From a virus: a stretch of 64,000 nt of DNA. Shown here piece after piece: positions 15,031 to 58,061 of this stretch. The position numbers and the translations under genes are program-made. How positions within the stretch are numbered: position 1 is the first letter of the stretch; the number at the start of each line of letters is the position of its first letter. The stretch lies in the IMG/VR virus record IMGVR_UViG_3300037587_000923, positions 18,046-82,045 of that record; one strand, written 5' to 3'. The notes under the pieces were generated by a model, which was not told the origin of the DNA, did not search any database, and saw only the letters and a program-made list of their open reading frames with translations.

Positions 15031-18000
15031 TTAAGCAGGCGCAAGCGTTGTTGCGGTTCCACTGGTTCCTACATATATCAATGCTCCGTTCTTTGTAGCC
15101 AATCTCCCATAAGTTCCACTTGTACCAGGTGTGCTGCTTTGAGACAACAATTCGATTATCCCTCCCCCTATCGCCCGGAGGGATATATTCCCATCACCGA
15201 CAAGGCCTGGATTTCCTTTCCCAACTACACCTATACTATTTGTGCTTTCCCCATAAACACCATAGTTATCAGTACTCTTTCCCCCAACTCCGCGAGAAGA
15301 AGTACTGAGTCCATAAACACCAAAAGAACTTGTACTTTGGCCTAAGACTCCTGTGCCACTGGTGTTGTCTCCATAAACTCCAACTGTCCCGGCTCCATTG
15401 CCCAAGCCTTTAACTCCGCCGCTGGTGCCAGCCCCGGTGGTTTGGCCAACAACCCCATGGTTAGAACTGCTACTGGTACTGCCTACAATGCCATCATTTG
15501 AGATGCTTAGGGCGCTTATAGCTCGCGCGGAACCGCTTAGGGCACGAAGAGCAATTCTGGTGCTATTGGCAGTGCCGAAGTAGCCGATTATATTGTCTGG
15601 TCCCTCCGTCCTGATCCCTATTGAGACGAGCTCCTCAATAGCTCCATCACCCCTGTTGCCGTAAAATCTCTGCTCACTCAAGGCTTCATCCATCAGGATA
15701 TTTTTTAAAGCAGGGATCACCGTTGAGTTGGTTGGATTGACCAGTAGCCCACTACAGCCTGTCAGCTGATCTCCCGATTTCCCAGTCCAACTAAAAGCAT
15801 CCCTGTCATTTGTCGTTCCCAATACCCACCCACTACCTGAGGTAGGGAAATCAGAAACATCTTGAAGGGCAAGGGTGGACTGTGCTGCCGATATTGAGCT
15901 CGGGTTATAACTTCCTTTCGTATGGTACTTTAAAGACTTAAGAGTTCCAGCCTGAATATCATCAGCATTAAGAGCGCCTCTTATATTCAAGACTGACCCG
16001 TCCCAGCTCAGATAATTAGTAGCATCACCTATCTCAAACTTGGCCTTATTGCTATCACTGTCGTCTATGCCAAGTATAAATCCTGCAGTGCTATCACCAA
16101 AGGCTGTCTTACCAGCCTGTATTGCTACATCACCAGTGGCTTCAGTAATTGCAAGAGTGATAACCTGAGAAGTTATGGTGCCAGCAGTAAGTTTATCTAC
16201 GGCAAGATCGTTTATCTTGGCATTGTTCACCGCAAGGTCTTCTATGTGGGCCGTCTGTACAGCCAGCTCTTGGATATAAGCCGATCCTATTACCTGATTC
16301 GCTATGGCATTCCATGCGAGGTCATGAGATCCACTTATATTGGTAGAAATAATGAACTGGCCATCAGAGAGGATAGGGTTTGTGTCTGAAGTTGAATAAG
16401 TCGTGCCACCGGTCCAGTAGATATATTTCTTGTCAGTATTTCCGCCCGTGATGCTGTATTCGGCACCATCATAGTAAAGTTTATGAGCATTCCACGTTAC
16501 ATAGTTTGCGGATGGCGAATCATCTGTCCAGCTATCTGCATCAAGAATAGGTATCTTCGTAAATATCTTGGAGGCTGTGATGGCGAAGTCATTGATATCA
16601 GTAGGCTCTACATTGAGTCCCTGAGCCGTTCCGTTAGCTGTGTCGGCGGAAGATTCCTGGCCGAACAGATCGACAGTTTTTACTTCAATAGTAATTACTT
16701 CGTCGGCCTCGGCTGTTATTAAAACTTCATTGCTATGTGTCTCTATCCATGAGCCAAAAGCGCCGGCGTCTATCTTATACCTATATTCGTAATGTGACAG
16801 GTCGGCATCTGTACTCTTTGCCCAGCTAAATTGAACGGAATCCATCCATTGACTTGATGCCAGCCCTGTAGGCGTTGTCGGGGTCGGATTCGTAAAAGTG
16901 CCCGTCACAGAGCCAGAGGCATTGTTGTAGATATCGTATGTTTTTAGGGCATAAGTGATGGATGGGTCAGCGCTCCCATTGTCCTGTATATTCTCATCGA
17001 GAGCATAGGCGTACTGTGCGTCTGTAAGCTTTATCTCTTTACTGCCGAGAGTTAGGCTGTGATAATTGAAATCGGTTTCTGTGGCCTCGGTCCATGAAAG
17101 CACGAGATCTCTGCCATTAAAATCTGAGGTGAGGCCTGTTGGATTTGCTGGTGCCGCCTGGCTTATTGTAATTTCGATATAGTCAGATACTCTATTGAAT
17201 TGATTCCACCGCCTGACCTTAAGCGCTACCGTTCCGTTGGCAGTAATTACCAGGCTATCAAGAAAATCTTCATAGCCATCTCCGTAGATATATTCGTATC
17301 TTAGCTCTCTTGTGGTGAAGGAGTGCTGGAGACTGTCTGATATCCATATCTCTACTTCATCGTATAGCCAATAGGGGTCGACGCCTACGCCACCTGCTCC
17401 TTGTAGCTCTCGTCCTGCAGGCTCACGCCCAGCTCCGCCTGTCTGTGAGGCACCCCTCCACTTGATCGCAAAGCGAAGTCCGTCCCAAGTATAGTTCATA
17501 GGGTCTGAGGCGCCTTCAAGTTGGAGGCCTGATGGTGTGGCTGGATCTACGGCTTGGCCATCTATCAGATTGGAGATTATGGGGGCAGTAGAGGCGTCCG
17601 CATAAATATTATTGGTACTGATCGAGACCACTCTGGCAGTCACAGTCTGGCCGACTTGGAATCTCCCTTGAGTTGCATCTATAGTGAAGCCAGTGCCCCT
17701 TGAAGTATCTTCTCCATAGTCAACATAGCTAGAACCTCCATCTGTGCTTATCTGGATTAGCGCCTTGTCCCAGAATATATTATCTTGTGGCAGATCATAG
17801 ATCAGGGTGAGGGTGGGCACGTAAGCACCATCATTATTGAAATATCCGTCTTCGGAAAGCGAGAGGTTAGTTGCATCATCAGGCGTAACAAAAGGCTTAG
17901 GTAGCGTTGTGAAAACTGAGACCTCTGGGATTATATCATTGATCGCATAAAACGCATCGTCGTAAAGCTCGAAAATATACGACACCTCTTCGTTTTCACT

Positions 18001-35608: not shown

Positions 35609-35769
35609 TAATACTCCTGATCCACCTTTAACTTTGAATTTTGCCCTTTACTTATAGCTGCACTTTTTGGACAGGCTATTTTAAGAGTGATGGAAGTGCC
35701 TGCAATTACAAGCATTTATTTTTGGATTTAGGCATGCTGAAAAATATAAAAATAATTCCACTTTTCTTG

Positions 35770-38267: not shown

Positions 38268-39403
38268 TGGAAAAAAATAAGGGTCTACAGCTAGTAGATA
38301 AAAAAGAAATGGCAGGGGGTGGTGGCTTTTCTCTTGCTCCAAGTAATCTAGGGGAGGCAATGGAGTTCGCCAAGATGATGGCTAATACAGACATGGTCCC
38401 TCGAGACTACGCTGGAAAACCTGCCAACATAATGATAGCTGTCCAGATGGGAGCCGAGATCGGCCTTAAACCGATGCAAAGCTTACAGAACATATCTGTG
38501 ATCAACGGCAGGCCTAGCGTGTGGGGAGACACCGCAATTGCATTAGTCAGGGTTCACCCTGACTGTGAGTCCATCAATGAATACCTTCTCGATAAAAATG
38601 GTAATAAGACCACTGGTACCGATTACGACACTGCAGTTTGTGTAGTGAAGAGGGCTGGCCAAGACGAAGAGATTAGGACTTTCAGCCTCGCTGACGCCAA
38701 AAAAGCCAGACTTATTGGTAAAACAGGGCCATGGTCTACTCACGAGAAGAGGATGTTGCAGCTGCGAGCTAGAGGTTTTGCTCTCCGTGATGTTTTTCCT
38801 GATGCATTAAAAGGCCTAGCGATTGCAGAGGAAGCTCAAGACTTACCACCTCGAGACATCACTCCTGCCAGGGAAGAAGTATTGACTCCCGAGTTCGATG
38901 TGCCCGTCATAGACACCGGCCGTAGTGTTATGGTTGAGGAGGTTGCCAATGAAGAAGTAGTTGATGCCGCCACTGGAGAGATCACTGAGGGGTCAGAGCA
39001 GAAGTCTGAGTCTGCCAAGATCGAGGATGACGACGCTCTCGATGCAACCGTTACCGGCATGATCGATCGTATTGAGAATATCGGTAATAAGTTCGAGGGG
39101 GATAACTGGCTGACCAAACATAGCTCTGAAATCAACAAGCTTCCGGAAGATGCCAAGGAAGTTGTTATGAACAACTACAAGGGGAAAATGGAAGATCTGG
39201 CATCGGAGGGTGTGGCCAAGGAAGAGGGATCAAAAGGTGACGAAGACTCCCTTGTTCTTGACTACATAAAGAAGCTGGAAAAACCTAAGAGCCTGGAGGA
39301 GCTTGACGCTATATTTGACGAGGCCCAGAATAAAATAAAGACCGGCGCAAAGGTTGTCGCCCTTCGTAAGGTTAGAGACAAGAAGGCACAGGATTTTAAG
39401 TAA
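38267..39403 (+). CDS. RecT-like single-strand annealing protein
   Basis: G.EIGL.PMQSLQNI.VINGRPS.WGD; W......ML..RA..FALRD.FPD.L.G. Confidence 0.85.
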   Translation: MEKNKGLQLVDKKEMAGGGGFSLAPSNLGEAMEFAKMMANTDMVPRDYAGKPANIMIAVQMGAEIGLKPMQSLQNISVINGRPSVWGDTAIALVRVHPDCESINEYLLDKNGNKTTGTDYDTAVCVVKRAGQDEEIRTFSLADAKKARLIGKTGPWSTHEKRMLQLRARGFALRDVFPDALKGLAIAEEAQDLPPRDITPAREEVLTPEFDVPVIDTGRSVMVEEVANEEVVDAATGEITEGSEQKSESAKIEDDDALDATVTGMIDRIENIGNKFEGDNWLTKHSSEINKLPEDAKEVVMNNYKGKMEDLASEGVAKEEGSKGDEDSLVLDYIKKLEKPKSLEELDAIFDEAQNKIKTGAKVVALRKVRDKKAQDFK

Positions 39404-39527
39404 CATTGGCATTGAGGGGCCGCCGGATTGATGGCAACCTCTTTCAAAAACTGAGTGGCGGGGAAAGCCGACTCCTGTAAAAATCAGACAGATGTTTAGG
39501 CGGTCACTCTCGAATAACTGGTTATGA
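39398..39527 (-). repeat. attC-like site A1
   Basis: TAAC..ATTGAGGGGCCGCC / GGCGGTCACTCTCGAAT..GTTA; extra C on the minus-strand left arm. Confidence 0.75.
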
Positions 39528-39543
39528 AACTTGGAGGTAGAAA

Positions 39544-39744
39544 ATGAACACTACAGAGCAACGCATGGCGGCAATATTTAACGAGTGGGCAAAACGTTAT
39601 TCTGAGAACCCTGACGCTTTCGGGCCTATATTTGATGATGAGGGGAAGCCGGTCACCGACTATGGAGTAAGATGCGCACGCTATTTCAAAAAGGTAGCCG
39701 ATGAAATGGACAGCAAGGGGATATTACCCGCACCTGTTTCATAA
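39544..39744 (+). CDS. Cassette gene, hypothetical
   Basis: Bracketed by GTTATGAAAC / GTTTCATAAC (10-bp perfect complement). Confidence 0.7.
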   Translation: MNTTEQRMAAIFNEWAKRYSENPDAFGPIFDDEGKPVTDYGVRCARYFKKVADEMDSKGILPAPVS

Positions 39745-39801
39745 CGCTTGAGGTAAGCGGAACGAGCGTAGCGAGTTTCCCACTTGAGCGAATTGTTATG
39801 T
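39739..39801 (-). repeat. attC-like site A2
   Basis: TAACGCTTGAGGTAAGCGGAA...TTCCCACTTGAGCGAATTGTTA; closely similar to A8. Confidence 0.8.
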
Positions 39802-39822
39802 TGAAACTTTTAACTATAGGAG

Positions 39823-40155
39823 ATGCTGATAATGACACCTGAAATTAATAAAAAATATTTAATTACGACCGATAATTGGTTTTTGGCACCTGATGGGAAT
39901 AGTTATCGCGCAGTATTTGGAACTGTCATAGGAATACAAACAGACGAAAATACATTGGGAGTTAAAACGAATAGAAGCTCGACAAACTGGTATGTTGCTA
40001 TCGGGAATATGTTGATCGCTGGTTGTCAAATACATTATGTAATCCAAGTGGATGAGGTAAGCTTTAACGCACCTAATAGAGAAATAGAGCACGATGGTAA
40101 ATTAACTAAAGAGAGGGAAAGCATAACAAGAATATATAATGCCGATGAAACATAA
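39823..40155 (+). CDS. Cassette gene, phage-type hypothetical
   Basis: TTDNWF.APDG..YRAVFG motif; GTTATGTT / AACATAAC brackets. Confidence 0.7.
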   Translation: MLIMTPEINKKYLITTDNWFLAPDGNSYRAVFGTVIGIQTDENTLGVKTNRSSTNWYVAIGNMLIAGCQIHYVIQVDEVSFNAPNREIEHDGKLTKERESITRIYNADET

Positions 40156-40348
40156 CGATTGAACTAAACTGCGGCGAAAGGAGAATATCATGAAATGGGA
40201 ATGTGGAAATTGTGGACACAAGGTTACTGAAAAAGAAACTGTTGAAGGTGGGAATAAAGAATGGAAATGCCCTAAATGTTCTAATATCAATAAGCATGAA
40301 AAAAAGAAAAGCGCGTTGAGCCGTCAGATTTGAGTGACTGGGTTAGGC
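40150..40348 (-). repeat. attC-like site A3 (loop encodes an ORF)
   Basis: ACTAAACTGCGGC versus minus-strand ACT[C]AAA[T]CTG[A]CGGC. Confidence 0.8.
40190..40333 (+). CDS. 47-aa Zn-ribbon peptide inside the attC loop
   Basis: RBS AAGGAG; MKWECGNCGH...WKCPKCS. Confidence 0.65.
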   Translation: MKWECGNCGHKVTEKETVEGGNKEWKCPKCSNINKHEKKKSALSRQI

Positions 40349-40371
40349 CGCACGAACCTTAGGAGGTAAGT

Positions 40372-40560
40372 TTGGAAAAGCCAGAATATTTAAAAGATGA
40401 ACATTTAAAATATCTAAATGAGCTGAAAGAAACCAAAATGGTACCCATGTTTGGAGCAGCATCTACCTTGAGATTATATTATGATTATCTGACAAAGGAG
40501 CAAGCCAGGAAAATATTAGCCTATTGGATAGACACATTTCAAGAGAGACATGCGGCATAA
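40372..40560 (+). CDS. Cassette gene, hypothetical
   Basis: NMFGA-like motif (PMFGAA..L); GTTAGGCCGCA / TGCGGCATAAC brackets. Confidence 0.65.
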   Translation: MEKPEYLKDEHLKYLNELKETKMVPMFGAASTLRLYYDYLTKEQARKILAYWIDTFQERHAA

Positions 40561-40757
40561 CAATTGAACTGTGCCGCTTGCAAAATTAAAGGAGAAAACC
40601 TATGAGTGGAGTTATAGACTTACCCTGTGGATGCACAATGGATGATTATTCAGGACTAGCACTTTATGTTTGCCAAGCGTGTAGAGAGCGCAAGAAGAGG
40701 CAAGAGACTTCAGAACGCGACAGCGTTTTGCAAGTCGGAACCAGTGATGGGTTAGAC
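40555..40757 (-). repeat. attC-like site A4 (loop contains a gene start)
   Basis: ACTGTGCCGCTTGCAAAA versus minus-strand ACT[G]GTTCCG[A]CTTGCAAAA. Confidence 0.75.
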
Positions 40758-40916
40758 TGCCCCCTTTGTGCGAAGATGGGGCCGAAAGAAGTTTATGAAA
40801 AGTGGGGCTTTGATTATGAAGCAAGATATAAAGACACATGCAAAGCGCATAGACCGCTAATGCTTGAGAGAATGGAAGATGGACTGAACAAGTTGAAAGA
40901 GCTTCTGGCAGACTAA
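40602..40916 (+). CDS. Cassette gene starting inside the attC, Cys-rich
   Basis: RBS AAGGAG in the loop; reads through the arm; GTTAGACTGCC / GGCAGACTAAC brackets. Confidence 0.65.
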   Translation: MSGVIDLPCGCTMDDYSGLALYVCQACRERKKRQETSERDSVLQVGTSDGLDCPLCAKMGPKEVYEKWGFDYEARYKDTCKAHRPLMLERMEDGLNKLKELLAD

Positions 40917-41272
40917 CAAGACAAGCTAAGGGGCTTGAACGAACGCAGTGAGAGAAAGTCCAAGGAGTGAAACGACTGTCTTTGAGCGCCTGGGTTATGT
41001 TTTTTGATATGACAGGGCAAAAAATCGGAGGTTATTATGGACGACATAGCAATAAATGAAGGTCAAAAGATATTTGAAGAAAGATATAAAAAGGGATTTC
41101 CAAAAGTGATATTTGGGGAGACGCACATCTCAATTCCTTGCACTTGCGACGATGGCGGTGGGCCTATTCACTGGGCAACAGTGCAGAACAACATAAGATC
41201 GATAGAAGAACATTTCCGGCATGAGGAGACTTTGCGTGAATTAAGGAAAATGGATAGGGACAAAACATAACG
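40914..41272 (+). repeat. Duplicated unit copy 1 (attC A5 plus 77-aa gene 41037-41270)
   Basis: 359 bp that read identical to 43242-43600. Confidence 0.9.
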
Positions 41273-41355
41273 TTGCCCTTAACCCGCACCTGAGCCAAGT
41301 TCCTATGAAATTGGAGACACCTTTAGGTGTCGGTGGTTCAAGGGCTTGGTTATAA
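41265..41355 (-). repeat. attC-like site A6
   Basis: GCCCTTAACCCGCACCT versus minus-strand GCCCTT[G]AACC[AC]CG[A]CACCT. Confidence 0.8.
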
Positions 41356-41376
41356 AACTTATCTTACGGAGGACTT

Positions 41377-41544
41377 ATGAAAGCTGAAATAAAGAAAGAT
41401 GGATTTATTTGGATAACCGCTGAAGACGCAACAGAGGCATTCGCGCTTAATCATTTAGTGCCAGTTGGTGACAAGGCGGAGGTGTGTAAAGAGTGCAACC
41501 AGGTTAAAATACCCGTTGTTATAGATGCGAGCGTATTAAACTAG
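41377..41544 (+). CDS. Cassette gene, 55 aa
   Basis: RBS GGAGG; GTTATAAAACT / AGTTTTATAAC 11-bp perfect brackets. Confidence 0.65.
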   Translation: MKAEIKKDGFIWITAEDATEAFALNHLVPVGDKAEVCKECNQVKIPVVIDASVLN

Positions 41545-41550
41545 GCAGTT

Positions 41551-41611
41551 TTATAACGAACAAGTTAAAGGGACGCTGGAACAGCGTTCCGCTTTGAACG
41601 CCTGGTTCTGA
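41551..41611 (-). repeat. attC-like site A7
   Basis: GTTAAAGGGACGCTG / CAGCGTTCCGCTTTGAAC; ends in GTTC. Confidence 0.8.
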
Positions 41612-41636
41612 GGCGTGTAACTTAAAAGGAGAAGAC

Positions 41637-41768
41637 ATGAGACTGATAATTTTAACACTTGGAATATGGGCATTGATGCATGTTGGATTTGACTTCGACT
41701 GGATGAGGGTTTTATGGACTATGGGGCTGACTGTTTATGCCGCATGGTATGATTTAATAAAGCCTTAG
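41637..41768 (+). CDS. Cassette gene, 43-aa membrane peptide
   Basis: RBS AAGGAG; GTTCTGAGGC / GCCTTAGAAC compensatory brackets. Confidence 0.6.
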   Translation: MRLIILTLGIWALMHVGFDFDWMRVLWTMGLTVYAAWYDLIKP

Positions 41769-41825
41769 AACGCCTGAGGTAAGCGGAAGCCGGAACGGCT
41801 TTCCGACTTGAGCGATTTGTTAGTT
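41765..41825 (-). repeat. attC-like site A8
   Basis: GAACGCCTGAGGTAAGCGGAAGCC...GGCTTTCCGACTTGAGCGATTTGTTA. Confidence 0.8.
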
Positions 41826-41855
41826 TGGATCTTGACTTTAAGGAGAGGCGACTAA

Positions 41856-42707
41856 ATGGCAAGAATTAAGTATACACAATGTATGGTAAGAGACTGCGAA
41901 AAGCCCCATCTATCTAAAGGCTTCTGTAATAGGCATTATCAGCAAATGTGGAAGCATGGACGCATTCTGCCTGATGCGGTGCCTATTGAAGACTTGGCCG
42001 GAGAGTTATGGGCTGACATTGAAGAGGCTGAAGGGTATCAAGTTAGCAATATGGGGCGTGTTAAGTCTCTTGTGGGCCGTGGCGGGTTAATAAAGCCACA
42101 GATCGAACAAAGGGGGCACATGAATACCCCTAAGAAGCGTGTCTATTTAGACAGGAGGGCAACAAGAGGCTGGGTTAAATTCTTGTATGTTCACCTAGAG
42201 GTAGCCAGGGCCTTTATCCCTAATAAGTTTGACAGCGCCCACACGACCTTTAAAAACGGGGATGCCTTAGACTGCCGTGCTGATAATATCGAATGGTGGT
42301 GGGAGAATCCACCTGTAGATGATGATGGGTTGATTCAGTTTAGAAAGTCGGTTCATTCTGAATTAGGGAAAAAGGTTCTGGCCTTTATTGATGGCAACCA
42401 GTCTGCCCTCGATAGTTTCGTAATGCAAAAGACTGACAAGATGAGGAAAATACTACAGAGTAAATTCAAAGGGGTCTGCGGAGACAATGTAAACGAAGCG
42501 GTGCACGTTGCTTTCAGTGAAGGCATGAGAGACATTAAACGCGGATTGCTTAGGGCAGACACACATATAGAAAACTGGTTCCTTCGGATTGCAGAGAACC
42601 AACTATTGGATGATATTAAAAAGAACAAGCACACTACATCTCAATGGGGCTGCAATGGTAATGGCGACGAGTTCGACAAATTTGATTTAATGGCGGCAAC
42701 AAACTAA
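41856..42707 (+). CDS. Cassette gene: Zn-finger + NUMOD4/degenerate HNH + sigma region-2-like domain
   Basis: C.V.DC.....KG.C.RHY; E.W..I...GYQVSN.GRVKS; VH..VA.AFIPN; NW..RIA.N..LD. Confidence 0.65.
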   Translation: MARIKYTQCMVRDCEKPHLSKGFCNRHYQQMWKHGRILPDAVPIEDLAGELWADIEEAEGYQVSNMGRVKSLVGRGGLIKPQIEQRGHMNTPKKRVYLDRRATRGWVKFLYVHLEVARAFIPNKFDSAHTTFKNGDALDCRADNIEWWWENPPVDDDGLIQFRKSVHSELGKKVLAFIDGNQSALDSFVMQKTDKMRKILQSKFKGVCGDNVNEAVHVAFSEGMRDIKRGLLRADTHIENWFLRIAENQLLDDIKKNKHTTSQWGCNGNGDEFDKFDLMAATN

Positions 42708-42788
42708 CTATGAATTAACCAGTGGCCCGACCAAGCCACACTGAAAACGGACACGCCTCTTGCCATCTGGTTGAATGGCGTGTTATAA
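42702..42788 (-). repeat. attC-like site A9
   Basis: ATTAACCAGTGGC versus minus-strand ATT[C]AACCAG[A]TGGC, the canonical extrahelical pattern. Confidence 0.85.
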
Positions 42789-42812
42789 ATTTTGCATTAG
42801 GAGGGTAATTAG

Positions 42813-43244
42813 ATGAGAGGATATGCGTGTATAGGGTTGGATAACCCCAAGGCGGCAGTTAACGTAGGATCGGCTTTGAGAGCCGCAGGGTGCTATGGGG
42901 CTGCAATGGTGGCTATGACGGGCAACCGGAGCGGAAAGACACCCACTGACACCATGAAGCAGTATCGACATAGGCCGTTGTTGCGCGTTGAAAATTTGAA
43001 AGATGTTATTCCTTATGACTGCGTGCCTGTGGCAGTTGATTTGATAGAGGGAGCTATTCCATTGCCAGAGTATGAACACCCCGAAAGAGCCTTTTATATC
43101 TTCGGGGCTGAAGATGCCACCCTGGGCGAAAGAGTGACATCTTGGTGCAGGGACACTATATATATTCCCACTAACGGTTGCATGAATCTAGCAGCAACGG
43201 TTAATGTGGTGCTATATGACCGGCTTGTTAAGCAAAATTTATAA
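42813..43244 (+). CDS. Cassette gene: SpoU/TrmH-family RNA methyltransferase
   Basis: NPK...NVGSALRAA; IFGAED; IP...CMNLAATVNVVLYDR; 14-bp perfect brackets GTTATAAATTTTGC / GCAAAATTTATAAC. Confidence 0.85.
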   Translation: MRGYACIGLDNPKAAVNVGSALRAAGCYGAAMVAMTGNRSGKTPTDTMKQYRHRPLLRVENLKDVIPYDCVPVAVDLIEGAIPLPEYEHPERAFYIFGAEDATLGERVTSWCRDTIYIPTNGCMNLAATVNVVLYDRLVKQNL

Positions 43245-43600
43245 CAAGACAAGCTAAGGGGCTTGAACGAACGCAGTGAGAGAAAGTCCAAGGAGTGAAA
43301 CGACTGTCTTTGAGCGCCTGGGTTATGTTTTTTGATATGACAGGGCAAAAAATCGGAGGTTATTATGGACGACATAGCAATAAATGAAGGTCAAAAGATA
43401 TTTGAAGAAAGATATAAAAAGGGATTTCCAAAAGTGATATTTGGGGAGACGCACATCTCAATTCCTTGCACTTGCGACGATGGCGGTGGGCCTATTCACT
43501 GGGCAACAGTGCAGAACAACATAAGATCGATAGAAGAACATTTCCGGCATGAGGAGACTTTGCGTGAATTAAGGAAAATGGATAGGGACAAAACATAACG
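43242..43600 (+). repeat. Duplicated unit copy 2 (attC A10 plus 77-aa gene 43365-43598)
   Basis: Reads identical to 40914-41272. Confidence 0.9.
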
Positions 43601-43635
43601 ATTGACTATATGGACATTTAATGTTGGTGTGAATT

Positions 43636-44007
43636 GTGAATAAGTATTATAAGCAAGTAAAATATAGACAGAATCAGAGAGATAAAAAAGAATGTTACCG
43701 TTTAAATTCTACTGATACGATTAGGGAATCTTATTATCAGCCACCTGAATTTAGAGGATTGAGGATATATGGAGATTGTGATCTCGGTTATCTTAGACTT
43801 ATTTACATTTCTCTATGGGAATGTGGACGTTTAGATTCCTATTACATACGCAACGAAAAAGTAGAAAATATTGGTAAGCGTCCAAAATTAAATGATGACA
43901 ATAGCGATTGGTGGATTGACAGTAATGGAAATCGTAAAAAATATGGCAAGGTTAATCTTGATAAGAAAATAAGAGAACTGATGCCGAATATAAGGAGGGC
44001 GGATTGA
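43636..44007 (+). CDS. Hypothetical protein
   Basis: AT-rich ORF coupled to the next gene. Confidence 0.5.
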   Translation: MNKYYKQVKYRQNQRDKKECYRLNSTDTIRESYYQPPEFRGLRIYGDCDLGYLRLIYISLWECGRLDSYYIRNEKVENIGKRPKLNDDNSDWWIDSNGNRKKYGKVNLDKKIRELMPNIRRAD

Positions 44008-44504
44008 TGAATTGCTTCCTAGGTAGGGTATACGACGACAAGCATGCCACTTGCATTTCCTGTATTAGGGCAGGAGAGAAGACTTGTAAGCAGGTCAAGA
44101 AGAAACGTAAGGCCCACGATATTCATACAGTTATGGCTGAAGGCAAGTGGCTTATGTGTACTAAAGACCTCAGAACCCCTAATGACTGGACCAACAAGAT
44201 GTACGGTAAGAAGATTTATAGGGGAGAGAGGTCTGCCTGGGAGAAACAGTTCAGAGGGATAATCCATTTATGGGGTAAGGCGTCAGGTAAGAGGCGCCTT
44301 ACCGTTATACGGTATGTTCCTGACAAGCGGTATCTCATGAAAGATAAGACCAATAGAGAGGGAGCCATGAAGCCTCTTGAGGATGCGCTTGTTAATCAAG
44401 GAGTACTTGTTGACGACAGGGATGAGTTCCTGGAGCGTGCCGACCTCAGGCAAGAGATAGATCCGGCAAGAGTAGGGGTAGCTATCTTAGTGGAGGATAT
44501 TTAG
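44004..44504 (+). CDS. RusA-like Holliday junction resolvase
   Basis: D..N.....K...DAL...GVL.DD motif. Confidence 0.7.
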   Translation: MMNCFLGRVYDDKHATCISCIRAGEKTCKQVKKKRKAHDIHTVMAEGKWLMCTKDLRTPNDWTNKMYGKKIYRGERSAWEKQFRGIIHLWGKASGKRRLTVIRYVPDKRYLMKDKTNREGAMKPLEDALVNQGVLVDDRDEFLERADLRQEIDPARVGVAILVEDI

Positions 44505-44787
44505 GCATGCTGAAAAAAAATTGCCTGGAGATAGTAATATATGACGACAAAGGCAATAGGTGTTGTTTTTCTCTTGACACCCTTTTCATTACTTTGATAG
44601 GGTGCGCTTACATTCCAATTTAACCTTTTGACAGAGGTACGAAGGATCAAATGAAAACCACTTTTAAACATAGAGAAGCCCACTCGAGCCAGAGCAATCT
44701 GGAGCAGGTCCCTTTTGGTCCACCTGTCTGTCAACTCGTGTGGGCTTCTGTGTGTTTAGCCCAATCCCAAAGAAATAAAGGTGTTAT

Positions 44788-47790: not shown

Positions 47791-47915
47791 ATATAACATT
47801 GAGTTCAGCAGGACCGGATTGAAAGCAAACACATTGGAAGAGGGAATGAACATGAAAGGCTTTTTGATTAAAATTAAAAACAGTGTTAGGGATCGGCTGC
47901 AACGTGGGGTTATTT
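47791..47915 (-). repeat. attC-like site B1
   Basis: TAACATTGAGTTCAGC / GCTGCAACGTGGGGTTA; minus strand reads GTT[G]CAGC. Confidence 0.65.
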
Positions 47916-48148
47916 GCGAATATGAGGCAGATAGATTATGGATCATTACAAGCTGGAGCTGGTGGAGGCACAACCACGGGATGCCATTTTGGAAGGCAGT
48001 GCGATGGACTTTTATGACCGATGTGTGGGACAAAATAGATAATTTTTATTGTGGAATATGGTTGCAGACAAGGGGCCGCTATTTACATTGGAAAGTTGAA
48101 AAGCAAAAAGTTGAAATATGGAAGCGAATTAAAGAGAAAAGCAAATAA
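47846..48148 (+). CDS. Cassette gene starting in the attC loop, Trp-rich
   Basis: GTTATTTGC / GCAAATAAC brackets; reads through the arm (DRLQRGV). Confidence 0.55.
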   Translation: MNMKGFLIKIKNSVRDRLQRGVICEYEADRLWIITSWSWWRHNHGMPFWKAVRWTFMTDVWDKIDNFYCGIWLQTRGRYLHWKVEKQKVEIWKRIKEKSK

Positions 48149-51438: not shown

Positions 51439-51500
51439 ACATAATGATTAAGCTAAACCGCCGCGCCATTTGCGGTCGGATTTTCAGCGCCTTGTTATGG
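51439..51500 (-). repeat. attC-like site C1 (core AAC mutated to AAT)
   Basis: GCTAAACCGCCGC / GCGGTCGGATTTTCAGC..GTTA. Confidence 0.7.
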
Positions 51501-51528
51501 CGCACTTACCCTAAAGAGAAAGGAAAAA

Positions 51529-52048: not shown

Positions 52049-52263
52049 GACCAGGCCCCGGATGGCATCACTTAGGCGGCGCAGTATGGCAACATGATAA
52101 TGGATCTAAAATACATGTTGGTGGCTTGATGGTATACCCCCATAACGGGGAAATAATAAGGCACTGGGAGCAGCTTGAAATAGTGAATAAGCTTATCAAA
52201 ATTAACGGTGGGAATAGAAAGCGTGGATTAATGGCATGGGCCATGAACTTAGCGGTGTCATAA
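51967..52263 (+). CDS. Cassette gene starting in the attC loop
   Basis: Reads through the arm (SGRLHKLVM); GTTATGAGACC / GGTGTCATAAC brackets. Confidence 0.65.
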   Translation: MDKKTTPESNTDQLSTVVSGRLHKLVMRPGPGWHHLGGAVWQHDNGSKIHVGGLMVYPHNGEIIRHWEQLEIVNKLIKINGGNRKRGLMAWAMNLAVS

Positions 52264-52306
52264 CACTTAGCTCTCCGAAGGAGGAGCGTTGAGGTTATGT
52301 TGCTCA
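52260..52306 (-). repeat. Mini-attC repeat copy 1
   Basis: 47 bp identical to 55751-55797. Confidence 0.85.
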
Positions 52307-55750: not shown

Positions 55751-55797
55751 ATAACACTTAGCTCTCCGAAGGAGGAGCGTTGAGGTTATGTTGCTCA
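55751..55797 (-). repeat. Mini-attC repeat copy 2
   Basis: Identical to 52260-52306; partial third copy at 56111-56129. Confidence 0.85.
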
Positions 55798-56820: not shown

Positions 56821-58061
56821 TTGACATTTATTTCTCACAAGATTAATATTGTTTTTGTGAAAACAAGATATACATTTAGGTTTTATCCTACTCAAGAGCA
56901 AGAACAATCTCTTGTCAAGACTTTCGGTTGTGTTCGTGTTGTATATAACAACGCACTTCGAGCCAGAATCGATGCTTGGCATAATGGTGAGAAAGTAAAC
57001 TATAACCAGTCTTCTGCTGCGCTTACACTTCTTAAAAAAGAAGCTGAATTTATGTGGCTCAATGAAGTGTCCTGCGTTCCTTTACAGCAAAGCCTTAGAC
57101 ATCTACAAGTAGCATTCAAAAACTTCTTTGATAAGCGGTCCAAGCATCCTACTTTTAAGTCTAAGCGATCCAGGCAGAGCGCTGAATATACTTGCTCAGC
57201 TTTTAAGTGGGATAGTGGCAATCGAAATCTCACCATTGCCAAACTTGGTAGACTTAAAGTGAAGTGGAGCAGGAGCTTCCAGAGTAACCCCACTACAGTC
57301 ACGATATCCAAGGACTGTAGTGGGAGGTACTTTGTTTCGCTTGTTCTCGATGAAGCTGTCGACCTTATACCTATGACCGGGAAGAGTATAGGTATAGATG
57401 TTGGCATAAACCGTCTTGCTACGCTTAGCAATGGCGAACGTATCCCTAACCCAAGGCATACAACGAAGTTTGCCAATAAACTTGCCAAAGAACAGAGGAG
57501 GCTTGCCAAAAAAACCAAAGGAAGCGGGAGATGGAACAAGCAGCGACTCCGTGTTGCAAAAGTTCACGCCAAAATAGCAGACTCTCGCAAAGATCATTTG
57601 AATAAAGTTACTATCGATTTGGTTAAGCGCTTTGATCTTATTTGTATCGAAGACCTGAATGTTAGAGGCATGGTAAAAAACCATCGCCTTGCCAAGCATA
57701 TCTCGGATGTTTCCTTTGGTACTTTTAGGGCAATGCTCGAGTATAAAGCCCTATGGCATGGCAAGGAAGTGGTTGCTATTGATCGTTTTTTTCCCTCCAG
57801 CAAAAGATGCTCCGCTTGCGGGTTTGTAGCATCCAAAATGCCTTTGGATGTACGTGAGTGGACATGCACAAATTGCGGTGCATGTCACGATCGTGATGAA
57901 AACGCAGCACACAATATACATGCGGTCGGGCAGACCGTCAAAGCACGCGGAGAAAACGTAAGACTTTCTTAGGCTTCGGCTTAACAAAGCAATTTTCTAT
58001 GAAACGTGAACCACTTAATAGCTAAGTATTAAGACCCCTCGACTTTCAAGGGAGGATGCCA
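56821..58061 (+). mobile_element. tnpB: IS200/IS605-family (IS1341-like) TnpB-only element
   Basis: CDS 56857-57972 with GIDVG, IEDL, DRDENAA and Zn finger; right-end hairpin CCCTC..GGGAGGATGCCAA; promoter TTGACA-17-TAATAT. Confidence 0.9.

Follow-up and report, generated by a model that had tools for sequence, protein, structure and literature searches.

An exact 359-bp duplication bounded by AAC triplets in an attC-like gene array of a tailed phage

How did one small gene, together with the hairpin that precedes it, come to stand twice, base for base, in a run of small phage genes? The question is raised by a window of 64,000 nucleotides, bases 18046-82045 of IMG/VR record IMGVR_UViG_3300037587_000923, which is a linear tailed-phage contig from marine sediment that is 72% complete. 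Positions are those of the window unless the record is named. A 359-bp segment is present here in two identical copies in the early/recombination region of the phage, between RecT and the replication genes. The hairpins between the genes are homologous to the attC sites of integron cassettes, they share one strand polarity, and both ends of the repeat lie on AAC triplets. With a probability of roughly 0.6, the duplication is an integron-type "copy and paste" of one cassette, with the integrase acting in trans.

Extent and ends of the duplication

Bases 40914-41272 and 43242-43600 of the plus strand were identical at 359 of 359 positions, with a start-to-start spacing of 2328, when a repeat search was followed by base-by-base extension. 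The exact duplication that had been reported in the initial annotation was thereby confirmed. The base 5' of the copies is C at 40913 and A at 43241, which makes a leftward extension of the identity impossible, and the base 3' of them is T at 41273 and A at 43601. This is the sole long exact repeat of the 82,045-base record; the only other repeat of at least 25 bases is 47 bp long.

Comparison of the flanking bases also bore out that the identity begins at a TAAC and ends one base past the next. The left end is the T of a TAAC that contains the stop codon of a 104-aa open reading frame (ORF) at copy 1 and that of a SpoU methylase gene at copy 2. The right end is the G following the next TAAC, which contains the stop codon of a 77-aa ORF. 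TAAC occurs at a frequency of 0.005 per base (25 in the 5000 bases from 39001 to 44000), and the chance of both repeat ends lying on this sequence is about 5e-5, a rough product in which the right end may be off by 0-1 base.

With the cuts set at AA|C, the identity is made up of a 354-bp unit, the cassette proper (40917-41270 in copy 1 and 43245-43598 in copy 2), flanked by TAA on the left and by CG on the right. Of these five bases, TAA and C are common to the sites, and the G would match by chance one time in four. The repeat is exactly one unit of attC plus downstream gene with both bounds on AAC triplets, as had been proposed for it. These ends are compatible with an integrase crossover, yet they place the crossover only within TAAC on the left and TAACG on the right; the proposal that they map the cut to AA|C was not upheld.

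The gene of the unit is the 77-aa ORF, located at 41037-41270 in copy 1, with GGAGG upstream, and at 43365-43598 in the identical copy 2, both on the plus strand. Its product matched no Pfam or PHROG family and had no match in an IMG/VR scan. A search of 5.8 billion proteins returned two, namely the protein itself and one 66-aa homologue with 58% identity, and the Atlas gave no usable feature match and a best structural TM of 0.51.

Homology and polarity of the intergenic hairpins

The plus strands of two hairpins, E2 (39739-39802) and E7 (41766-41826), were aligned with the bottom strand of the aadA1 attC site of plasmid R100 (NC_002134), with scores of 64.5 and 65.5, respectively. Shuffled sequences scored about 28 ± 4 (28.1 ± 4.0 for E7), and the opposite orientation scored 33 for E2 and 36 for E7. 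The two hairpins and aadA1 attC have in common the R box, both halves of the unpaired spacer and an L box with a bulged G. Mean column identity in a four-sequence alignment with aadA1 attC was 76%.

A covariance model (R1) was trained only on E2, E7 and a third plus-strand hairpin, E6 (41552-41612), and was run over 117,387 bases comprising the window, a recombinase locus (L003) and R100. Five matches were obtained at E <= 10: the three training sites, the bottom strand of aadA1 attC (43 bits, E 2e-8), which was the sole match in 50 kb of R100, and window positions 51440-51501. A degenerate pattern of the site type led to 19 short metagenome contigs (L011-L029), in which R1 found 50 matches. 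They line up on one strand, with up to 10 sites per contig a few hundred bases apart, as classic cassette arrays. The retrieved DNA of these contigs contained no integrase, and no protein in common with the phage cassettes.

A second model (R2) was trained on those 50 metagenome sites and is not independent of the phage sites, by which they were found. It scored 54.6 bits for aadA1 attC and, all on the plus strand, 54.8 bits for E2, 41.2 for E7, 26 for the site at 51440 and 23.6 for a site at record position 15456. Lower plus-strand scores were given by E8 (42703-42789, upstream of SpoU; 21.2 bits, E 0.0016), a 199-nt site at 40151-40349 (20.6 bits, E 0.0025) and E6 (17.8 bits). In a 132-kb search, five sites between 39.4 and 43.6 kb (E2, 40151, E6, E7 and E8) reached R2 E <= 0.017; weaker sites in this interval were E1, E4 in both copies and E5.

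Other searches for sites of this type added little. The degenerate two-part pattern had no match in viral contigs, and a 26-base stretch of E4 had none in metagenome contigs. A 20-base motif of E2 and E7 was found at one viral locus without a model match and at three genome loci with a best model E of 0.073; about four would be expected by chance, and these were attributed to chance.

The R box of an attC site is described as 5'-AAC-3' paired with 5'-GTT-3' within RYYYAAC/GTTRRRY (Nivina et al. 2016, PMC5027507). Pairing of ATAAC with GTTAT was observed in E2, E5 and a hairpin at 52260, and of AAC with GTT in E6, E7 and E8, while E4 pairs only TAAC with GTTA. The extended consensus is followed loosely, as in GTTATGT. 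On this homology of sequence and predicted structure, the intergenic hairpins are taken to be attC sites.

The hairpins might instead be elements acting on transcription or at the RNA level, such as processing sites, terminators or cassettes of the PeSL type, their likeness to attC being incidental. They do lie between co-oriented genes of an early operon, on the transcribed strand. In a like setting, the PeSLs of T4-type phages, also intergenic stem-loops, are reported to mediate modular shuffling of small genes, with mini-circles (Arbiol 2010, PMC2839356). However, PeSLs are described in that work as a conserved strong sigma-70 promoter plus a terminator stem-loop that recombine by homology, whereas the hairpins examined here differ from one another in sequence and carry no such conserved pair. 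Promoter-like sites were at chance level (17, against 17.5 ± 4.9 in shuffles), as were terminator-like sites (9, against 6.6 ± 2.9). No terminator-like site of the plus strand is one of the elements, and the elements matched no Rfam family. Given also their homology in sequence and structure to a proven attC and to the sites of classic arrays, a purely transcriptional or RNA-level role is highly improbable.

The hairpins that bear directly on the repeat are weaker or altered. E4, the hairpin of the repeated unit, spans 40912-41001 in copy 1, where R2 gave 6.4 bits (E 6.4 over 18 kb), with R' as (C)TAAC at 40913-40917 and R'' as GTTATG at 40994-40999. In copy 2 it spans 43240-43329, and R2 gave 10.3 bits on the plus strand versus 0.8 on the minus strand (E 0.013 in a 551-base search). 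The model alignment of E4 shows a bulged G, and its fold z was -0.63. A start of E4 at the internal AAC at 40938-40940 was rejected because four left contexts break at the first (T)AAC and the model puts R' there.

The two copies are followed by different sequences, as had been stated, but not by two different hairpins. Copy 1 runs into a strong hairpin, E5 (41266-41356, plus strand), with a folding energy of -18.4 kcal/mol and a fold z of -4.14; none of 200 shuffles folded as well, and R2 gave only 7.1 bits. After copy 2, a half-site was observed at 43594-43653 on the plus strand, consisting of ATAAC followed by GATTGA and scoring 8.9 bits with R1 and 6.0 with R2. No hairpin was found here: the fold z of 43594-43680 was +0.86, and 157 of 200 shuffles folded as well. 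At the left end of the array, 3' of RecT, E1 (39399-39528, plus strand) is a weak attC-like hairpin with an R2 score of 8.9 bits, a fold z of -1.09 and no bulged bases in a constrained fold.

Published bottom-strand geometry of attC places extrahelical bases opposite AAC and the cut between A and C of that triplet (Nivina 2016, PMC5027507). In constrained folds, bulged bases lay on the plus-strand 3' arm, opposite the 5' AAC, in E5 (one base), E6 (three), E7, E8 and the hairpin at 52260; the bulges of E2 were judged by its homology to E7. Because of these 3'-arm bulges and the strand of the aadA1 match, the plus, coding strand of the window is the bottom-type strand of attC. The coding strand being the attC bottom strand, the cut AA|C falls on the stop codon of the gene in front. 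Between RecT and copy 2, 9 of 12 genes end in TAA with C as the next base, compared with 4 of 48 elsewhere on the plus strand (Fisher p 8.5e-6). Behind most of these cluster genes comes an imperfect hairpin, with GTTAT or GTTAG at its end, then a short spacer and a strong ribosome-binding site.

Of the 31 intervals between sites of the metagenome arrays, 25 had their longest ORF on the strand opposite the model and 2 on the model strand; 4 were unclear. This is the canonical layout, in which a top-strand ORF is followed by its own attC. The same holds for aadA1 in the Tn21 integron of R100, where the gene is on the top strand and upstream of attC, whereas the phage genes are on the bottom-type strand and downstream. 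Every family-supported ORF of the phage array (a 110-aa protein of phrog_22562, an HNH endonuclease and SpoU) is on the model strand, downstream of attC. The phage unit reads C, attC, ribosome-binding site, ORF, TAA, which is the reverse of the canonical cassette.

Relatives of SpoU were used to look at this layout elsewhere. IMG/VR contained 40 of them, and R2 sites at E <= 1 were found in 5 of the 41 loci searched. Bottom-type sites stand directly upstream and downstream of SpoU, on its coding strand, in L045, L049 and L056 (the upstream site of L056 with G, T and T bulges four bases apart), which suggests that the reversed arrangement is widespread. In L040, the SpoU coding strand is the top strand, the canonical polarity. 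Whole-record scans of five SpoU-relative records gave 8, 3, 3, 1 and 1 sites at E <= 0.01. For the closest relative (L032, 86% nucleotide identity), similarity covers 42762-43245 and stops at the C of TTATAAC.

The cluster has no integron integrase nearby and is therefore a CALIN (cluster of attC sites lacking an integrase nearby), defined as at least two clustered attC sites with no integrase nearby and identified here with model R2. It holds about eleven small units between RecT and the replication genes. Phage CALINs are known, and 5 of 6 tested phage attC sites are reported to be recombined by IntI1 (Qi et al. 2023, PMC9892861). The array described here resembles them as an integrase-less attC cluster with a methyltransferase among its cargo. 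The text of that paper makes no mention of all-bottom-strand gene arrays or of a duplicated cassette, and its supplementary tables may bear on this. In our literature search, no paper was listed that describes phage arrays whose genes all lie on the bottom strand of attC.

Origin of the duplication

In the favored account, an integron-type tyrosine recombinase, acting in trans and probably provided by the host, would have excised or copied the 354-bp unit with its 77-aa ORF as a single-stranded circle. The circle would then have been re-inserted at a second AAC, while replication retained the original, and the half-site after copy 2 may have been the point of entry. "Copy and paste" by integrases is reported to yield arrays with the duplicate in first position, and duplicated cassettes are described as common in large chromosomal integrons (Loot 2012, PMC3458562; Souque 2021, PMC8024014). 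The phage duplicate is likewise a whole cassette with its attC and AAC ends. Its layout matches the published aadB-blaVEB-1-dfrA5-aadB product, in which one copy is outermost and the other lies several cassettes inside: copy 2 forms the outer end of the array, next to an AAC site that has no hairpin and no recognizable attI features, and copy 1 is five units inside. Unlike the integrons in which "copy and paste" was described, the phage has no intI, no recognizable attI and no Pc, and its gene lies downstream of attC on the bottom-type strand. The excision and reinsertion suggested in the initial annotation are thus partly supported, as far as layout goes. The reverse order of events would yield the same product, and so would a five-cassette circle inserted beside a resident copy.

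A possible role for the half-site is that of an attI- or attG-like entry site. Integrases are reported to insert cassettes at non-att GWT sites, termed attG, a result obtained with IntI1-3 in E. coli (Loot et al., bioRxiv 10.1101/2022.09.11.507474). An AAC without a hairpin follows copy 2, and such insertion needs only GWT (= AWC), so that we infer a possible target by analogy with the E. coli work.

Several observations weigh against an integrase as the agent. No integron integrase is encoded in the 82-kb record, itself 72% complete, and RecT and an exonuclease adjoin the array, providing a ready route of recombination without one. The repeat ends narrow the crossover only to 4-5 shared bases. 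As an attC, E4 is weak (6.4 and 10.3 bits, fold z -0.63), and copy 2 is followed by a half-site instead of an attC. In contigs of other sequencing runs, the E4 hairpin is joined to different right-hand sequence after G|TTA (40993, 43321), which a simple unit of attC plus downstream gene does not predict. Finally, contigs of the probable source run leave the fourth junction, from the repeat to a 123-aa gene, uncovered, with none on 43644-44367, and the inner contig of the repeat has a depth of 116.4 against 79-92 in the flanks rather than two-fold (about 170), although contig depth, here and in all figures below, is not a copy number.

The sole tyrosine recombinase of the phage, 21 kb away, is a poor candidate for the enzyme. 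It scored 27.1 bits with TIGR02249 against a cut-off of 265, and it was aligned with IntI1 only over residues 2-179, the first half, at 24% identity. About 83 residues were counted on its translation from the box I Arg to HxxR, compared with a spacing in IntI1 that we take to be about 131. On this assumed spacing, the phage recombinase is suggested to be without the IntI-specific insertion. The locus thus differs from a complete integron, in which an intI with the extra domain stands beside attI and the array. A tblastn search with IntI1, as translated from R100, against the phage genome and a set of collected loci matched the recombinase of the phage itself and 37 residues in L005; none of the metagenome arrays was matched. 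TIGR02249 had no match in any of five related viral records, of which a single one reaches 90% completeness. Either the host or the missing 28% of the genome would have to supply the integrase.

General recombination by the phage, or microhomology template switching, might also be asked to explain the duplication, with the TAAC ends being simply a common boundary sequence. This includes annealing by RecT and the exonuclease as well as unequal crossing-over between co-infecting variants of the cassette order. RecT and the PD-(D/E)XK exonuclease are encoded 1.5-4 kb upstream, no integrase is present, E4 is a poor attC, TAA plus C (9 of 12 gene ends) is the commonest microhomology available, and related phages elsewhere carry the same modules with other neighbors. 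However, only 4-5 bases are common at each end, and RecT-type annealing normally uses far more than this. A crossover within the 1,969-bp block between order variants needs an earlier move at the level of the cassette, and the source-run contigs offer no second junction where the 104-aa gene, SpoU or E5 ends. General recombination is judged an unlikely alternative to an integrase.

The duplication could also have been created by assembly, and this was checked in contigs of public runs only. A genome with a single copy (104-aa gene, repeat, 123-aa gene) together with a separate molecule or strain carrying the repeat and the 1,969-bp block would be misread as two copies, since short k-mers cannot span a 359-bp exact repeat and a genome plus a 2.3-kb circle gives the same graph. 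The inner-contig depth of 116.4, not about 170, is in keeping with this, and mini-circles formed by exchange of intergenic elements are reported in T4-type phages (PMC2839356). In the probable source run, independent k=31 contigs break off exactly 30 bases inside the repeat at three of its four junctions (ending at 40943 with a depth of 91.8, starting at 41243 with 79, and ending at 43271 with 81.5) without a competing branch, as expected of a true two-copy repeat. A path through both copies uses every edge once. The 1,969-bp block is as deep as its flanks (79 and 81.5 versus 91.8 and 82.9), a level hardly reachable by a by-product circle. The source-run contigs thus support three of four junctions, the lack of two-fold depth tells the other way, and an artefact is considered improbable.

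Other neighbors of E4 were seen outside the source run. Runs X2-X4 hold small shares of related sequence and served only to show what is bridged by a single contig; no habitat was read from them. In two other sediment runs (X2 and X3), the first 69-77 bases of E4 are present without difference, preceded by unrelated sequence up to the (T)AAC. The differing right neighbors of E4 may mean that several nearly identical sites exist, or that exchange took place at both ends. In run X4, one contig is about 94% identical to 40153-40341, the 199-nt site, with other sequence on both sides.

Cassette duplication and phage CALINs are already known; what is new is the reversed unit together with natural evidence of movement in a phage genome. 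Evidence that phage attC clusters actually rearrange is scarce, and a cassette-sized duplicate that ends on the recombination triplet is a sign of recent activity. The mobile unit is attC plus downstream gene, the opposite of the textbook cassette. Tentatively, and with clear reservation, phages might keep a cassette pool of their own with reversed polarity, the duplication being a fresh product of a host integrase or of an unrecognized phage recombinase. If so, a unit of attC, ribosome-binding site and ORF could insert behind any gene ending in TAA-C without breaking that gene, which would be a simple rule for slotting small accessory genes into phage operons. Phage early regions would then be a second arena of integron-type exchange, with cargo such as homing endonucleases and RNA or DNA methylases.

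Neighboring genes and scattered sites

A head maturation protease is among the large genes of the minus-strand half of the window. The plus-strand genes start at about 35.8 kb and encode the PD-(D/E)XK exonuclease, RecT, the run of small ORFs, an HNH/NUMOD4 protein and SpoU, followed beyond the array by a RusA-like protein, a replication initiator and a DnaB-like helicase. Separating the copies is a 1,969-bp block (41273-43241, plus strand) of four units, each with an attC-like site upstream: a 55-aa ORF, a 43-aa ORF, the HNH/NUMOD4 homing-type endonuclease (41856-42707, plus strand) and the SpoU methylase (42813-43244, plus strand), which has family support. The endonuclease is itself a unit of the array and has an attC homologue on either side. 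It was considered as the maker of the repeat and dropped, as homing makes no direct repeats. The loop of the 199-nt site, to the left of copy 1, contains a ribosome-binding site and a complete 47-aa ORF (40190-40333) with a CxxC...CxxC zinc ribbon, for which Pfam Zn-ribbon matches were below the cut-off.

Little of this region was found in other phages. Bases 39400-44100 had no match among 50,697 phage records in a distant-mode blastn search, and 15 window proteins had no tblastn match outside the phage genome among the loci collected in this analysis. In IMG/VR, RecT matched two loci at 27-28% identity, which was uninformative, and the 110-aa protein gave a single marginal match over 26 residues.

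Sites of the attC type were also observed away from the array. The site at 51440-51501 is a plus-strand attC homologue in which AAT replaces AAC (R1 26.6 bits, R2 26 bits). With weak candidates at 47792-47916 and at 56.1 kb, sites are scattered over 39-56 kb and not confined to one block. A solitary E2-like homologue is present at record positions 15456-15995 (L030), 2 kb before the window, with an R1 score of 48.9 bits and an R2 score of 23.6 bits. There, AGC replaces AAC, an ORF and a second AGC...GTTATG remnant follow, and the Xer-like tyrosine recombinase of the phage lies about 0.9 kb downstream. The 47-bp exact repeat of the record (52260-52306 and 55751-55797) contains a 40-nt mini hairpin that pairs ATAAC with GTTAT and has bulges on the 3' arm. 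Its identity begins at ATAAC, and it is weak as an attC (R1 10.7 and 11.7 bits).

A TnpB-type gene is located at 56821-57972, with OrfB_IS605 and a Cas12f1-like TNB domain (phrog_506, E 2e-131). The 466 ORF-free bases that follow it may be a candidate guide RNA region. Hairpin transposition of the IS200/IS605 type was dropped as a source of the elements in view of their homology to attC. A 19-base exact repeat was observed at 35726-35744, in a divergent promoter region, and at 44499-44517, just before the replication genes, and is possibly the binding site of a regulator.

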